Under the pieces are notes generated by a model that made no database searches, was not told the origin of the DNA, and was given only the letters and a program-made list of their open reading frames with translations. Positions 1-5,537 of a stretch of DNA of 5,537 nt are shown here, piece after piece (the stretch's first letter is position 1; each line of letters opens with the position of its first letter). The stretch comes from a virus (Duplodnaviria; Heunggongvirae; Uroviricota; Caudoviricetes), in IMG/VR virus record IMGVR_UViG_2698536408_000009, positions 1 to 5,537 of that record. The stretch is one strand, 5' to 3'. The translations under genes were made by a program, and so were the position numbers.

Positions 1-255
1 CAACATGGTGTAGCAGCCAGCCAGTTATTTCTCTGGCGTAAGCAATACCAGGAAGGAAGTCTTACTGCTGTCGCCGCCGGAGAACAGGTTGTTCCTGCCT
101 CTGAACTTGCTGCCGCCATGAAGCAGATTAAAGAACTCCAGCGCCTGCTCGGCAAGAAAACGATGGAAAATGAACTCCTCAAAGAAGCCGTTGAATATGG
201 ACGGGCAAAAAAGTGGATAGCGCACGCGCCCTTATTGCCCGGGGATGGGGAGTAA
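1..255 (+). CDS. insC: IS2 transposase OrfA (InsC), 5'-truncated by the window edge; C-terminal 84 codons present
   Basis: Frame +1 from position 1 reads [24 protein letters not shown]...LLPGDGE and stops at TAA 253-255; matches remembered InsC C-terminus. Confidence 0.85.
207..213 (+). other. Programmed -1 ribosomal frameshift motif (A AAA AAG) linking insC and insD frames
   Basis: A6G heptamer at 207-213 sits in the insC/insD overlap; insD frame is -1 relative to insC. IS3-family transposases are made as OrfAB fusions by -1 frameshifting (established knowledge). Confidence 0.6.
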
Positions 256-1118
256 GCTTAGTCAGCCGTTGTCTCCGGGTGTCGCGTGCGCAGTTGCACG
301 TCATTCTCAGACGAACCGATGACTGGATGGATGGCCGCCGCAGTCGTCACACTGATGATACGGATGTGCTTCTCCGTATACACCATGTTATCGGAGAGCT
401 GCCCACGTATGGTTATCGTCGGGTATGGGCGCTGCTTCGCAGACAGGCAGAACTTGATGGTATGCCTGCGATCAATGCCAAACGTGTTTACCGGATCATG
501 CGCCAGAATGCGCTGTTGCTTGAGCGAAAACCTGCTGTACCGCCATCGAAACGGGCACATACAGGCAGAGTGGCCGTGAAAGAAAGCAATCAGCGATGGT
601 GCTCTGACGGGTTCGAGTTCTGCTGTGATAACGGAGAGAGACTGCGTGTCACGTTCGCGCTGGACTGCTGTGATCGTGAGGCACTGCACTGGGCGGTGAC
701 TACCGGCGGCTTCAACAGTGAAACAGTACAGGACGTCATGCTGGGAGCGGTGGAACGCCGCTTCGGCAACGATCTTCCGTCGTCTCCAGTGGAGTGGCTG
801 ACGGATAATGGTTCATGCTACCGGGCTAATGAAACACGCCAGTTCGCCCGGATGTTGGGACTTGAACCGAAGAACACGGCGGTGCGGAGTCCGGAGAGTA
901 ACGGAATAGCAGAGAGCTTCGTGAAAACGATAAAGCGTGACTACATCAGTATCATGCCCAAACCAGACGGGTTAACGGCAGCAAAGAACCTTGCAGAGGC
1001 GTTCGAGCATTATAACGAATGGCATCCGCATAGTGCACTGGGTTATCGCTCGCCACGGGAATATCTACGGCAGCAAGCCAGTAATGGGTTAAGTGATAAC
1101 AGGTGTCTGGAAATATAG
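213..1118 (+). CDS. insD: IS2 transposase OrfB (InsD), DDE integrase-like catalytic domain, 301 aa
   Basis: ORF 213..1118 starting at GTG; translation [23 protein letters not shown]...NRCLEI matches remembered InsD; overlaps insC in the -1 frame. Confidence 0.9.
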
Positions 1119-1129
1119 GGGCAAATCCA
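1089..1129. repeat. IS2 right terminal inverted repeat (approximate extent)
   Basis: Terminal about 40 bp of the element ending ...CAGGTGTCTGGAAATATAGGGGCAAATCCA; left IR is outside the window so pairing cannot be verified here. Confidence 0.55.
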
Positions 1130-1237
1130 GCGTTCATCAGCCCCCGCATTGCCGACAGGATCACAGACGGGGGGCGCAACTGGTTGTCGTTCAACTGGCC
1201 CAGCTACCGTTCTTGTATCAGAGGTGTGGCTGCATGA
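1130..1237 (+). pseudogene. Possible 3' remnant of a phage replication gene (O/gene-18-like position) cut by the IS2 insertion
   Basis: Frame +2 is stop-free for 35 codons from the IS2 junction and ends at TGA 1235-1237, overlapping the helicase ATG 1234-1236 as ATGA. Weak: 35 open codons can occur by chance. Confidence 0.3.
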
Positions 1238-2625
1238 CAACACCAGTCTGGCGTAATGATGACCTGGAAGGCGCTGTCATTGGCGCATTCTTTCTGCGTG
1301 GGGCAGATCATGAAGTGATGGATATTCTGATCACACTACCGGCGGACATTTTTTCTGTACGAGCGTATCGGGATATCTACACAGGCATCTGCAGACAGGC
1401 CCGTGTTTCAGGAGTGATTGACCCCGTGCTGTTGTGTAATGAGATGCCGGAACTTGCCCCGGTGATTACTGATACCGGGCGTAAAACCTGGGTGAAGTCT
1501 TCACTGGAGCACTATGTTGCAGCGTTGCGGCGCAATGCCGCACTGCGCGATGCAGAAAAAACACTGAATGAGGCGCTGCAGAAATTACGTGATGCGCATA
1601 CCTGTGAAGCAGCTGAAGATGCCCTGAAGGATGCGCAGAACATGATGGTCACACTGTCGACAGGAAAGGGCGTCATTCAGCCGGTACATATTGATGATGT
1701 GCTTCCGGAAGTGGTTGAGCGTGTTGAATGCCGGAATCAGGGGCTGGAGAAATCCAGGACGTTGATGACCGGTATTGATGAACTGGACGCAAAAACAGGC
1801 GGTATGGAGCCCGGAGACCTGGTATTCATTGCCGCCCGTCCTTCGATGGGGAAAACCGAACTTGCGCTGGACATCATCGACAAGGTGACTGAGCAGGGGC
1901 ATGGTGTGCTTCTGTTCACCATGGAGATGGCGAACATCCAGATTGGTGAACGTATGGTGTCTGCGGCTGGAGGGATGCCAGTATCACGCCTGAAATCTGT
2001 GGCTCACTTTGAAGATGAAGACTGGGCGCGTTTCTCACAAGGGGTGGGGCGGATGACCGGGCGCAATATCTGGATGGTGGACCAGGCGAACCTGACCATT
2101 GATGAGATATGCGCAACAACGAAACACCATCTGATTAAACATCCGGAAACGGCGCTGGTGGTGGTTGATTATCTCGGGCTGATAAAAACCCGAACCACGG
2201 GGCGTCATGACCTTGCCGTGGGTGAAATCTCAAAGGGGCTTAAAGGCCTGGCAAAATCCGGTGGTTTTCCGTTGATTGCGCTGAGCCAGCTCTCCCGCGG
2301 TGTGGAGTCCAGACCCAATAAACGTCCCATGAACTCAGACCTGAAAAATTCCGGAGAAATAGAGGCGGATGCAGACATCATTCTGATGCTTTACAGGGAT
2401 GAAGTGTACAACCCGGATACACAGGCTACAGGCATAGCAGAAATTAATATCACGAAACAACGTAACGGTTCTCTGGGGACGATTTACCGGCGTTTTTATA
2501 ACGGACATTTTCTGCCTGTGGACCAGGAAAGCGCACAGGTTCTTTCCACCCCAATGCGGCAGCCCCAGCCGCGCAGATACAGCAATACACGTACCGACAG
2601 CAGTAAGATGGAGCGTTTCTTTTGA
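1234..2625 (+). CDS. Phage-type replicative DNA helicase, DnaB family (P22 gp12-like), 463 aa
   Basis: Walker A AARPSMGKT, Walker B LVVVDYLGL, and ALSQLSRGVESRPNKRPMNSDLKNSGEIEADADIILMLYRDEVY and ITKQRNGSLG motifs align to E. coli DnaB. Start at ATG 1234 with GAGG 9 nt upstream; the ORF track's 1093 start is a GTG inside the IS2 terminus. Confidence 0.85.
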   Translation: MTTPVWRNDDLEGAVIGAFFLRGADHEVMDILITLPADIFSVRAYRDIYTGICRQARVSGVIDPVLLCNEMPELAPVITDTGRKTWVKSSLEHYVAALRRNAALRDAEKTLNEALQKLRDAHTCEAAEDALKDAQNMMVTLSTGKGVIQPVHIDDVLPEVVERVECRNQGLEKSRTLMTGIDELDAKTGGMEPGDLVFIAARPSMGKTELALDIIDKVTEQGHGVLLFTMEMANIQIGERMVSAAGGMPVSRLKSVAHFEDEDWARFSQGVGRMTGRNIWMVDQANLTIDEICATTKHHLIKHPETALVVVDYLGLIKTRTTGRHDLAVGEISKGLKGLAKSGGFPLIALSQLSRGVESRPNKRPMNSDLKNSGEIEADADIILMLYRDEVYNPDTQATGIAEINITKQRNGSLGTIYRRFYNGHFLPVDQESAQVLSTPMRQPQPRRYSNTRTDSSKMERFF

Positions 2626-2879
2626 ACAACCAGACAATGACTTTTACCTCTGAACAATTGCGTAAACACGCGCAGGAAATGTTGCGACAGGCGGAACAAC
2701 TGGAAAAAACAGGTGTAACAAAAGATGCCATTCGTCGGGATATGGTGCCAGCGCTCAGGGAACTGATGCAGGCGAAACATCGCGCACAAAAAGCGGTGGA
2801 TGAGCTCGTTGATTGTGTGGCAGAGCTGGAAACCAAAGTTGGAAAGTTTGAAAAAATGGTGCAGGAGGTGCTGCGCTGA
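2622..2879 (+). CDS. Hypothetical small phage protein (nin-region position), 85 aa from TTG 2622 or 80 aa from ATG 2637
   Basis: ORF between helicase and rusA; GGAG at 2610-2613 is 8 nt before TTG 2622; stop TGA 2877-2879 overlaps the rusA ATG. Charged, helical-looking sequence; no family recognised. Confidence 0.5.
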   Translation: MNNQTMTFTSEQLRKHAQEMLRQAEQLEKTGVTKDAIRRDMVPALRELMQAKHRAQKAVDELVDCVAELETKVGKFEKMVQEVLR

Positions 2880-3250
2880 TGCGCCATGAGTTTATTTTAC
2901 CTTATCCGCCGACGGTGAATACTTACTGGCGACGTCGTGGCAGCACATATTTTGTATCAAAAGTTGGTGAGCGTTATCGCCGTGATGTGACGCTAATTGT
3001 TCGCCAGCAGCGGCTGAAATTAAACCTGTCCGGAAGGCTGGCGATAAAGATTATTGCAGAGCCACCGGATAAGCGCCGTCGTGACCTGGACAATATCCTG
3101 AAAGCACCACTGGATGCGCTGACGCATGCCGGACTACTCATAGACGACGAGCAGTTTGATGAAATCAATATTGTGCGCGGTCAGCTCGTTCCTGGTGGGC
3201 GACTGGGCGTGAAGATTTATGAAATCACAGGTGATAACGATGGCGCGTGA
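2879..3250 (+). CDS. rusA: Holliday junction resolvase RusA (endodeoxyribonuclease RusA family), 123 aa
   Basis: Translation [21 protein letters not shown]...[30 protein letters not shown]...[11 protein letters not shown] parallels E. coli RusA (PPSNNRYY...[30 protein letters not shown]...GGRLELTITEM). Confidence 0.85.
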
Positions 3251-3626
3251 TATTCAGCAGGTTATGGAACGGTGGGGGGCTTGGGCTGCAAACACTCATG
3301 AAGATGTATCCTGGGCGTCGATCGCTGCTGGTTTTAAAGGGTTAATTCCGTCGAAAGTGAAATCACGCCCTCAGTGTTCTGATGATGATGCAATGATAAT
3401 TTGTGGCTGTATGGCCCGGTTGAACAAGAAAAATCAGGATTTGCACGATTTGCTGGTGGATTATTACGTAGGTGGAATGACTTTTATGAGTCTGGCACGG
3501 AAACATGGGTGTTCGGATACCTGTATTGGCAAGCGCCTGCAGAAAGCGGAAGGGGTTATTGATGGCATGTTGATGATGCTTGATATCCGGCTGGAGATGG
3601 ACAGATACGTAGAACGAATTATGTAG
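3240..3626 (+). CDS. quuD: Late-gene antitermination protein Q, short Phage_antitermQ-type (DLP12 QuuD-like), 128 aa
   Basis: Translation [23 protein letters not shown]...[20 protein letters not shown]...[19 protein letters not shown]...[23 protein letters not shown] resembles the remembered DLP12 Q-like protein; ATG 3240 overlaps rusA stop; sits immediately after rusA as in lambdoid nin-Q regions. Confidence 0.65.
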
Positions 3627-3630
3627 GTGC

Positions 3631-3660
3631 TTGACCAGACACATTGTCCGGGGCTATATT
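3631..3660 (+). promoter_or_regulatory. Candidate sigma70 late promoter (PR'-like) just downstream of Q: TTGACC-18-TATATT
   Basis: -35 TTGACC 3631-3636 and -10 TATATT 3655-3660, starting 5 nt after the Q stop, as lambda PR' does. Sequence-motif call only. Confidence 0.45.
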
Positions 3661-3721
3661 CCTCACGCGCCAGCAAAATCTGGCGTCGGGATTGGAACCC
3701 CGGATAGAGACCGCGACAGAC

Positions 3722-3746
3722 ACACGCCGCGAGCGTGTTTTTTATT
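3722..3746 (+). terminator. Intrinsic terminator (tR'-like) about 80 nt downstream of the candidate late promoter
   Basis: Stem ACACGC (3722-3727) / GCGTGT (3733-3738), 5-nt loop, then TTTTT; preceded by two more hairpins at 3667-3685 and 3687-3702. Confidence 0.55.
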
Positions 3747-3871
3747 GTCGTATGCACGCGCACATCTGAATTATGGTGGGGCGCATGGGGGAGCTGAAAA
3801 GCTCGCCGGTCGGTTTCCCGGTAGTTCCAACCCTGTGCGTCTCACCACCCGATGATTGGAACCTGACGGTG

Positions 3872-3900
3872 TTGACAGTTTCAGGTTTGCAGTTTACATT
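3872..3900 (+). promoter_or_regulatory. Second candidate sigma70 promoter: TTGACA-17-TACATT, possibly serving the downstream ORF6N gene
   Basis: Perfect -35 TTGACA 3872-3877 and -10 TACATT 3895-3900 with 17-bp spacer; a weak hairpin plus T7 run follows at 3936-3963. Confidence 0.4.
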
Positions 3901-4100
3901 TCCCCGCGGTGCTCAAAACACCTCGAAAGCGGTATCCACACCCGATAGCCATGTGGTTTTTTTGTGTCCAGAATTCTTGGTTTATGACCGGGTGTGCGGC
4001 TAATACAATACCAGCAATGGAAATACGCCCGCCGACTTTCGACGGTTTTGAGCGCCCGGTCACCCTCTCAAAAGGGGTAAATCAAAATATTCGAAAGGAC

Positions 4101-4670
4101 ATGTCTATGAATCGCACGTCTATTGAAAAACTCCCGTCACTTACGCATAACCATCTTCCTGTCATGACAACAGAGCTGCTGGCTGATTTGTACGGAACAG
4201 AGCGCCAGCGTTTGACAAACAATTTCAATCGAAACAAAGAACGGTTTATAGAAGGTAAACATTTTTTCCTGATAGAAGGTGATGCGTTACGAGAGTTGAA
4301 GAACGAAAACTCTTTAAGAGTTTCTGTGAAAATTGCCCGTAACGTTCGCTCCCTCATCCTCTGGACAGAACGTGGCGCAGCCCGTCACGCCAAAATGCTC
4401 GAAACCGATCAGGCGTGGGAAGTGTTCGAAAAACTGGAAGACTGTTATTTCAACCAGAAACAGCCACCAGCGGCACAAAACACATCTATCGAAAATGATG
4501 GATGCGCATTACTGAGCCACTTCGATAAACACGGTCAGGTTGAGTTCACGGAAAAGGTACCCGCCGATGCGATGGTATGTACTCTGGAACGGTTTAAATT
4601 TTATCTGGAGCAACACGGGTGGATCGTTGCCCGTAAAGAGCAACTGGTGGAGCGGTTGATGCGGTTTTAA
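4101..4670 (+). CDS. ORF6N-domain / phage antirepressor-like protein, 189 aa
   Basis: ATG 4101 with AAGGA 2 nt upstream; N-terminal region LADLYGTERQRLTNNFNRNKERFIEGKHFFLIEGDALRELKNE...LWTERGAARHAKML looks like the ORF6N/antirepressor N-terminal domain. The 3909 upstream extension in the ORF track has no plausible start. Confidence 0.7.
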   Translation: MSMNRTSIEKLPSLTHNHLPVMTTELLADLYGTERQRLTNNFNRNKERFIEGKHFFLIEGDALRELKNENSLRVSVKIARNVRSLILWTERGAARHAKMLETDQAWEVFEKLEDCYFNQKQPPAAQNTSIENDGCALLSHFDKHGQVEFTEKVPADAMVCTLERFKFYLEQHGWIVARKEQLVERLMRF

Positions 4671-4745
4671 AAATTTTTTCCGAAAACTTTACGATCGTAA
4701 AAAGTTGAATATCCTGTTAAGAGTGGTTACTACGCCACACAGCTT

Positions 4746-4772
4746 AAACCCGCCGATGAGCGGGTTTTTTTA
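4746..4772 (+). terminator. Rho-independent terminator after the ORF6N gene (A-tract upstream, so possibly bidirectional)
   Basis: AAA-CCCGC-CGATGA-GCGGG-TTTTTTT: 5-bp GC stem, 6-nt loop, 7-T run, 76 nt after the stop codon. Confidence 0.7.
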
Positions 4773-4821
4773 TACCTGAAAAACGGCACAGGACGTTAAA
4801 CGTGCTGGTGGTCAGATGAGT

Positions 4822-4850
4822 TTGCAGATGTGATGACATATGGTTATTAT
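4822..4850 (+). promoter_or_regulatory. Candidate promoter for the tRNA array: TTGCAG-17-TATTAT
   Basis: -35 TTGCAG 4822-4827, 17-bp spacer, -10 TATTAT 4845-4850, GC-rich discriminator, first tRNA starting 10 nt downstream. Confidence 0.4.
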
Positions 4851-4859
4851 TCTGCCTCC

Positions 4860-4936
4860 GGCCCTTTAGCTCAGTTGGTCAGAGCGAGCGACTCATAATC
4901 GCCAGGTCGCTGGTTCAAGTCCAGCAAGGGCCACCA
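4860..4936 (+). tRNA. tRNA-Ile2 (anticodon CAU, lysidine type; ileX/ileZ-like), 77 nt with encoded CCA
   Basis: Hand-folded cloverleaf: acceptor GGCCCTT/AAGGGCC, D-stem GCTC/GAGC, anticodon loop CTCATAA, T-arm GCTGG-TTCAAGT-CCAGC. Anticodon and T arms match remembered E. coli ileX, so Ile2 rather than Met. Confidence 0.75.
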
Positions 4937-4937
4937 A

Positions 4938-5014
4938 CCACCACTAGCTCATCCGGATAGAGCATCAACCTTCTAAGTTGACGGTGCGAGGTTCGAGTCC
5001 TCGGTGGTGGGCCA
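4938..5014 (+). tRNA. tRNA-Arg (anticodon UCU), phage-type, 77 nt with encoded CCA
   Basis: Hand-folded cloverleaf with all stems perfect: acceptor CCACCAC/GTGGTGG, D-stem GCTC/GAGC, anticodon stem TCAAC/GTTGA with loop CTTCTAA, T-arm CGAGG-TTCGAGT-CCTCG. Diverged from host argU; unusual C1:G72 first pair. Confidence 0.7.
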
Positions 5015-5016
5015 GC

Positions 5017-5092
<76 letters not shown>

Positions 5093-5095
5093 TAT

Positions 5096-5170
<75 letters not shown>

Positions 5171-5176
5171 AGATGT

Positions 5177-5252
5177 GCTGATATAGCTCAGTTGGTAGAG
5201 CGCACCCTTGGTAAGGGTGAGGTCGGCAGTTCGAATCTGCCTATCAGCACCA
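5177..5252 (+). tRNA. thrT: tRNA-Thr (anticodon GGU), thrT, 76 nt
   Basis: GCTGATATAGCTCAGTTGGTAGAGCGCACCCTTGGTAAGGGTGAGGTCGGCAGTTCGAATCTGCCTATCAGCACCA; 6-nt spacer after glyT and 114-nt spacer before tufB, as I remember for K-12. Confidence 0.9.
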
Positions 5253-5330
5253 CTTCTTTTCTCCTCCCTGTTTTTTCCTTCTGTTTATTGCATTCAACAA
5301 GTCGGGCATGTTGCCTGGTTGATGTGGTGA

Positions 5331-5537
<207 letters not shown>

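Follow-up and report, generated by a model that had tools for sequence, protein, structure and literature searches.

Organization of the locus

The window, i.e. the whole stretch of 5,537 nucleotides analysed here (positions 1 to 5,537 of the IMG/VR virus record IMGVR_UViG_2698536408_000009), opens inside an IS2 element. This is followed by a short remnant of a helicase-loader gene and by an intact replicative helicase gene, to which prophage early/delayed-early genes are still joined downstream (2622 to 3626). The features are the following:

1-1129, plus strand: IS2 (nt 203-1331 of the 1331-bp element); boundaries taken from copies bearing target duplications
up to 255, plus strand: 3' part of orfA, within IS2; the window starts inside the element
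213-1118, plus strand: orfB of IS2, 301 aa; from the open reading frame list
about 1089-1129, plus strand: IRR (right inverted repeat) of IS2; 41-bp IRR length from PMC3299598
1108-1113, plus strand: TGGAAA, putative outward -35 of the IRR (Pjunc -35); deduced from the IS2 end sequences and the 17-nt spacer rule
1130-1134, no strand assigned: GCGTT, 5 bases abutting the IS2 right end; possible target-duplication copy if the original event was an insertion
1130-1237, plus strand: remnant of a DnaC/IstB-like helicase-loader gene, codons 258-292 and TGA; from homology to intact genes
1221-1226, plus strand: Shine-Dalgarno-like GAGGTG, 7 bases upstream of the helicase ATG; read from the sequence
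1234-2625, plus strand: intact DnaB-family replicative helicase gene, 463 aa; PF03796
2622-2879, plus strand: 85-aa open reading frame; from gene calls in Shigella sonnei loci
2879-3250, plus strand: RusA; Pfam RusA, E = 7.5e-15
3240-3626, plus strand: antiterminator Q; Pfam Phage_antitermQ, E = 2.2e-52

The ends of IS2 (TAGACTGG...GCAAATCCA; 1331 bp) were set from copies at four other sites, each with a perfect 5-bp duplication (GACAC, AGGCT, TTTTC and ATGGG). Alignment with these fixed boundaries places the last base of the element at 1129, 104 bp before the helicase ATG, where the earlier note had located it, and window positions 1-1129 correspond to IS2 nt 203-1331. The element carries the characteristic termini, of which the right end lies in the window, and the orfA/orfB arrangement of IS2. 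In related loci the orfB gene matches the Pfam profiles HTH_21, rve and rve_3, and thus encodes a DDE (rve) transposase. An A6G slippery run can be read at 206-212, and the IRR of IS2 is 41 bp long (PMC3299598). Compared with seven E. coli copies, the IS2 of the window shows 1-5 mismatches to six of them and 17 to the remaining one.

The helicase is complete. It matches the DnaB_C profile (PF03796) with E = 7.8e-73 over profile positions 2-247 of 255, and it scores 22.3 bits against PF00772, the profile of the DnaB N-terminal domain, for which the cutoff is 23. Its start and its length equal those annotated in the intact prophage of E. coli RMDEC465 (locus L001) and in the Stx2e phage phiP27. 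The GAGGTG sequence in front of it is kept inside the remnant and is conserved in both relatives. In its own frame, the helicase gene meets no stop upstream as far as a GTG at 1093; the corresponding N-terminal extension into IS2 should not be annotated. Many assemblies encode a protein identical to this helicase, among them the complete genome of S. sonnei 53G (HE616528).

Both ends of the window lie in repeated DNA, IS2 on the left and tuf on the right. Exact matches to the helicase, to the ORF6N protein and to IS2 OrfB led only to S. sonnei genomes, which are unlike the window in the interior of IS2 and in the DNA that follows a phage-borne tRNA-Gly, or to unrelated IS2 sites of E. coli. 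Up to position 5170, the window and the S. sonnei locus differ at 20 sites, every one of them inside IS2. The element is a mosaic: positions 952-1129 have no mismatch to the S. sonnei copy adjacent to the helicase gene while positions 1-1036 have none to another S. sonnei IS2 copy, which locates the crossover between 952 and 1036. On the right, the window diverges from the S. sonnei loci precisely where the tRNA-Gly ends, and from there it continues into chromosomal thrT-tufB. The mosaic and the tRNA-Gly/thrT-tufB join may stem from genuine recombination in the source strain or else be products of a short-read assembly path leading through repeats. Exact-pattern scans of a one-genome-per-species collection detected neither the association of the phage tRNA-Arg with thrT nor the junction between IS2 and the loader remnant, which is the expected outcome if an E. 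coli genome alone stands for Shigella there. This last junction is affected neither by the mosaic nor by the tRNA-Gly join, and it is confirmed by 19 S. sonnei loci.

The remnant of a helicase-loader gene

The 104 bases between the end of IS2 and the helicase ATG (1130-1233; ATG at 1234-1236) belong to a stretch that is free of stops in frame +2 from 1103 to a TGA at 1235-1237. This TGA overlaps the helicase ATG as ATGA (1234-1237). The open frame and the overlap had been taken in the earlier note as what is left of an upstream replication gene, translationally coupled to the helicase gene, after IS2 had replaced its body, and comparison with intact relatives bears this out. The translation of 1130-1234, AFISPRIADRITDGGRNWLSFNWPSYRSCIRGVAA, corresponds to residues 258-292 of a 292-aa protein encoded by the E. 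coli RMDEC465 prophage, to whose C-terminus it is identical at 34 of 35 positions (BLASTP E = 2e-22). Identity to the C-terminus of L18 of phiP27 is 32/35. The loader and helicase genes overlap by 4 bases both in RMDEC465 (CDS 5230-6108 and 6105-7496) and in phiP27 (5350-6108 and 6105-7496, as annotated).

At the DNA level, 352 complete E. coli genomes match 1130-1700 by megablast, the best of them with 97.7% identity over 571 bases, and in nearly all of the matches listed the features underneath are an 'ATP-binding protein' and a 'replicative DNA helicase'. The closest phage match is phiP27 (94.3% DNA identity over 1130-2700). Homology to the intact relatives begins exactly at 1130, directly after IS2, and their sequence at the junction reads ...GTTGTGG GCGTT CATCAG. 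The related prophages devoid of IS2 at this place thus carry a coding gene there and not plain intergenic DNA.

Could 1130-1233 nevertheless be ordinary intergenic DNA with a frame left open by chance? A run of 35 codons without a stop has a probability of about (61/64)^35 = 0.19, and two frames are open over this stretch, that of the helicase being included in an open reading frame spanning 1093-2625. The open frame is therefore not significant in itself, and it is the homology that identifies the remnant as real coding sequence. The annotated 292-aa protein which it matches carries an IstB_IS21 domain and belongs to a large family (744 members at E <= 1e-20 in a search of 5.8 billion proteins), with a length of about 292 aa in most of the best 120 of these 744 matches. 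A chance frame can hardly be reconciled with these data and is given next to no credence.

The earlier note had assumed that the interrupted gene encoded the replication initiator. The full-length homologues match PF01695 (IstB_IS21; E = 1.4e-15, residues 140-256) as well as the DnaA ATPase domain. Members of the family are common in enterobacterial prophages and are sometimes labelled 'DNA replication protein DnaC', and the gene lies immediately upstream of a DnaB-type helicase gene with an ATGA overlap, the position of a loader. Judged by these homologies, the severed gene is a DnaC/IstB-like AAA+ helicase loader and not an initiator. The candidate initiator of the intact relatives is a helix-turn-helix protein related to LvrA-C, encoded one gene upstream of the loader; it too is missing from the window. 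The remnant (residues 258-292) lies wholly downstream of the ATPase domain, and the window holds no AAA+/Walker region. It is a gene fragment and not a functional loader.

The E. coli relatives and phiP27, in which L17 is the helix-turn-helix protein, L18 the DnaC-like loader and L19 the replicative helicase, share the gene order and the ATGA overlap with the window. In contrast to phiP27, L18 is reduced here to its last 35 codons and L17 is missing. Differences from phiP27 are also observed downstream, where RusA is located before Q and a c4-type RNA/ORF6N region after it.

The IS2 junction in Shigella sonnei

The junction between IS2 and the loader remnant is identical in 19 of 19 full-length S. 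sonnei loci fetched, which come mostly from complete chromosomes. Positions 1130-5170 are 100% identical to the window in 17 of them; one of the two others (L021) has 1 mismatch, and in the second (L013) the helicase gene is interrupted by an IS. Directly to the left of IS2, each of the 19 loci reads ...GCTTTAGTTGC, part of a gene for a 459-aa AIDA autotransporter-stalk repeat protein which runs into IS2. Pfam identified AIDA repeats in this protein and no other match, so that it appears to be truncated too. The pentamers bordering IS2 are GTTGC on the left and GCGTT on the right, and the target duplication sought at the left end is therefore absent from the 19 loci. A second IS2, about 11 kb away and covered over its whole length in 7 of those loci, exhibits a perfect GACAC duplication. 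The prophage left arm (6 kb, from RMDEC465 and phiP27) was compared by BLAST with all loci and gave no match up to 10 kb from the junction in S. sonnei. The DNA beyond the remnant varies among the S. sonnei loci, with bamE-recN in some and raiA-pheA in others.

IS copies are known to be left after deletions without direct repeats (PMC9330008). Here, the presence of different truncated genes on the two sides of IS2, together with the lack of a target duplication, points to a deletion or rearrangement junction rather than to the plain insertion which the earlier note had proposed. From these sequence comparisons, the junction is probably a scar left by a deletion or rearrangement associated with IS2, as in the S. 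sonnei loci, an overall explanation to which we assign a probability of about 0.85. The initial step would have been insertion of IS2 into the loader gene at GCGTT. Homologous recombination with a second IS2 located in the autotransporter gene, the most likely route, may then have followed. As an outcome, the left arm with the integrase, the immunity region, the initiator and the ATPase domain of the loader would have been lost from the locus, or possibly relocated. The helicase gene is left intact but orphaned: it has its own Shine-Dalgarno sequence, but no longer a loader, translational coupling or its native promoter, which is of the pR type and lies far upstream.

Two other histories have to be weighed. 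After a simple insertion of IS2 into the loader gene, the rest of this gene and the left arm would lie directly across IS2, with a duplication of GCGTT. The right flank does begin with GCGTT as in the intact relatives, so that the original event could have been such an insertion, and the window opens inside a mosaic IS2 that differs at 20 sites from the S. sonnei copy, so that the left flank in the source may differ from that of the 19 loci. However, every one of these S. sonnei loci with the identical junction shows GTTGC and the autotransporter fragment on the left, and neither loader nor left-arm sequence occurs within 10 kb in any of the 19, which makes a simple insertion improbable. A somewhat better case, although still an unlikely one, can be made for an inversion or translocation between IS2 copies, after which the 5' part of the loader gene and the left arm would survive elsewhere beside another IS2. 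The alternation of bamE-recN and raiA-pheA reveals IS-mediated rearrangement among the S. sonnei loci, the IS2 of the window is a hybrid of two copies, and rearrangement rates in Shigella are reported to be high (PMC8072062). Against this, left-arm DNA was found in no fetched locus. Likewise, no Shigella-labelled N-terminal fragment of the loader is evident among the best 120 protein matches listed, a weak argument as clustering at 90% identity hides members and names are sparse.

Expression of the orphaned helicase

The earlier note left the orientation of IS2 undecided and supposed that the helicase now relies on read-through or on a junction promoter. The transposase genes and the IRR point towards the helicase gene, which is the orientation able to form hybrid promoters. 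In IS3-family elements, the outward -35 of the circle-junction promoter is located in the IRR and can create a fusion promoter if the flank supplies a correctly spaced -10, and for IS2 such promoters are documented for ampC, acrEF and neoR (PMC9330008). The junction promoter of IS2, Pjunc, needs a spacer of exactly 17 nt, which results from the 1-bp spacer of the circle junction (PMC3299598).

Activation of the helicase by a hybrid promoter, composed of the -35 of the IRR and a -10 in the flank as for ampC, would agree with the succession of transposase, IRR and helicase, with the known IS2 fusion promoters and with the absence of a terminator in a scan between orfB and the helicase ATG. However, a consensus scan of 900-1400 yielded no sigma-70-like promoter, a search which a weak or non-sigma-70 promoter could escape. 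The hexamers found 15-19 bp from TGGAAA (AGCGTT, GCGTTC, CGTTCA, GTTCAT and TTCATC) match TATAAT at no more than three positions and none has the A at its second position. GTTCAT, the best candidate with 3/6, would lie at 18 bp from the deduced -35, and the junction promoter of IS2 fails at spacings other than 17 (PMC3299598). Such an activation is thus highly improbable. The likeness to the ampC fusion promoter (Jaurin and Normark 1983, as cited in PMC9330008) and to Pjunc (PMC3299598) is restricted to geometry, namely an outward -35 in the IRR located 5' of a gene in the same orientation; unlike in these systems, there is no -10 at the 17-bp spacing and no predicted promoter. A terminator-like hairpin at 1271-1286 lies inside conserved helicase coding sequence and, with 0.3 expected per shuffle, was treated as a chance occurrence.

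The promoter of IS2 itself is weak and repressed by OrfA (PMC3299598). The helicase is most likely silent, or weakly transcribed by read-through from this promoter. Of the two sources of expression considered in the earlier note, the junction promoter thus finds no counterpart in the sequence, and read-through would be the one left. The helicase looks to be without a role in phage replication and dispensable: in one S. sonnei genome, that with the IS noted above, the gene is interrupted by a 1.26-kb IS3-family element. In another assembly (L018), a prophage 98% identical carries a different IS3-family element, which interrupts the loader gene about 130 bp upstream of the position where it is cut here. 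The orphaned gene, intact and identical in the many S. sonnei assemblies carrying it, might instead be kept weakly expressed by IS2 read-through and be a co-opted gene, interfering for instance with phiP27-like phages that enter the cell or with the restart of host replication, and not a relic that has yet to decay. We regard this as a very remote prospect.

Comparison with known systems

The locus is a phiP27-type (lambdoid) replication module that IS2 has truncated within a decayed S. sonnei prophage, and it offers nothing of a new kind. Published complete genomes already contain the junction, which represents ordinary, known biology and raises no new question on phage replication or on IS2. 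Its value is one of annotation, since the 104 bases can be labelled as a helicase-loader pseudogene fragment. Since all 19 full-length S. sonnei loci fetched have the junction, it may have reached fixation and could serve as a stable marker of the lineage.

About half of the S. sonnei pseudogenes are due to IS insertions (Hawkey et al. 2020, PMC7373316), and frequent rearrangements between IS copies are described in Shigella by Seferbekova et al. (2021, PMC8072062). The locus shares the features of this IS-driven pseudogenization and prophage decay (PMC7373316 and PMC8072062): here too, a gene is truncated by one of the IS elements of the expanded Shigella set, which marks the site of a rearrangement. 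It shows no difference of substance from these cases and constitutes one specific instance of them.

Other insertions in the loader and helicase genes

The loader remnant (1130-1237) differs from the RMDEC465 protein at a sole amino acid, Arg to Cys (CGT to TGT, position 1219). Such a change fits the neutral drift of a dead gene fragment; one substitution, however, is no proof. The same loader gene has received an independent IS hit in a 98%-identical prophage from another assembly (L018, 5685-7030), where it is cut approximately 130 bp further upstream than in the window, within the Walker B region (...DEVGVQFG). The truncating element belongs to the IS3 family, is different from the window's IS2 and lies in the opposite orientation, with a phage integrase on its far side.

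Upstream of its ATG the helicase frame remains open over 1093-1233; the GTG with which this stretch begins, at 1093, lies in the IS2 inverted repeat. A naive longest-ORF call would therefore yield a spurious 510-aa helicase, its N-terminus being partly IS2-encoded. The helicase gene itself is split at about codon 77 in one S. sonnei genome (GCA_020874455.2; L013 6093-7357, corresponding to 1463-1466 of the window) by a 1.26-kb IS3-family insertion whose OrfB is 272 aa long.

A mosaic IS2 copy

The window IS2 (1-1129) and the helicase-adjacent S. sonnei IS2 differ at 20 sites, all located in 72-951, and match over 952-1129. A second S. sonnei IS2 copy matches the window perfectly over 1-1036 and differs at 7 sites in 1037-1103. 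The window copy is a mosaic, with the crossover between 952 and 1036. This pattern implies either IS2-IS2 recombination or gene conversion, or else an assembler path through IS2 variants.

The tRNA cassette and the right end of the window

A cassette of four tRNA genes (CAU, Arg-UCU, Thr-UGU and Gly-UCC) occupies positions 4860-5170 of the window and 8618-8928 of the RMDEC465 locus (L001). The CAU tRNA is called Met by ARAGORN and annotated as Ile in RefSeq. Not one base of the cassette differs between the window, S. sonnei 53G and E. coli RMDEC465; the DNA beyond it is unrelated among the three. Host thrU and glyT share about 99.6-99.8% identity with the Thr and Gly genes of the cassette, a similarity suggesting capture from the thrU-tufB operon of the host.

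Region 5017-5537 carries the phage-borne tRNA-Thr(UGU) and tRNA-Gly(UCC), followed by chromosomal thrT and tufB; tyrU is missing from this chromosomal stretch. Identity to RMDEC465 and all fetched S. sonnei loci runs to 5170, the last base of tRNA-Gly, past which these relatives diverge from the window into phage DNA. At the tRNA-Gly/thrT join, either the phage-borne glyT has recombined with the chromosomal one, or the assembly is a chimera formed through a 75-base repeat.

RNA elements upstream of the ORF6N gene

Four Rfam matches, all above the gathering score, sit between Q and the ORF6N gene (3654-4069) and are listed here with that gene:

3654-3706, c4-a1b1 targets (Rfam)
3667-3743, isrK (Rfam)
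3769-3852, C4 antisense RNA (Rfam)
3986-4069, sRNA-Xcc1 (Rfam)
4107-4670, Ant-like gene, ORF6N (antirepressor-like)

Region 3654-4069, upstream of the Ant-like gene, looks like an antisense-RNA control region of the P1/P7 immI type.
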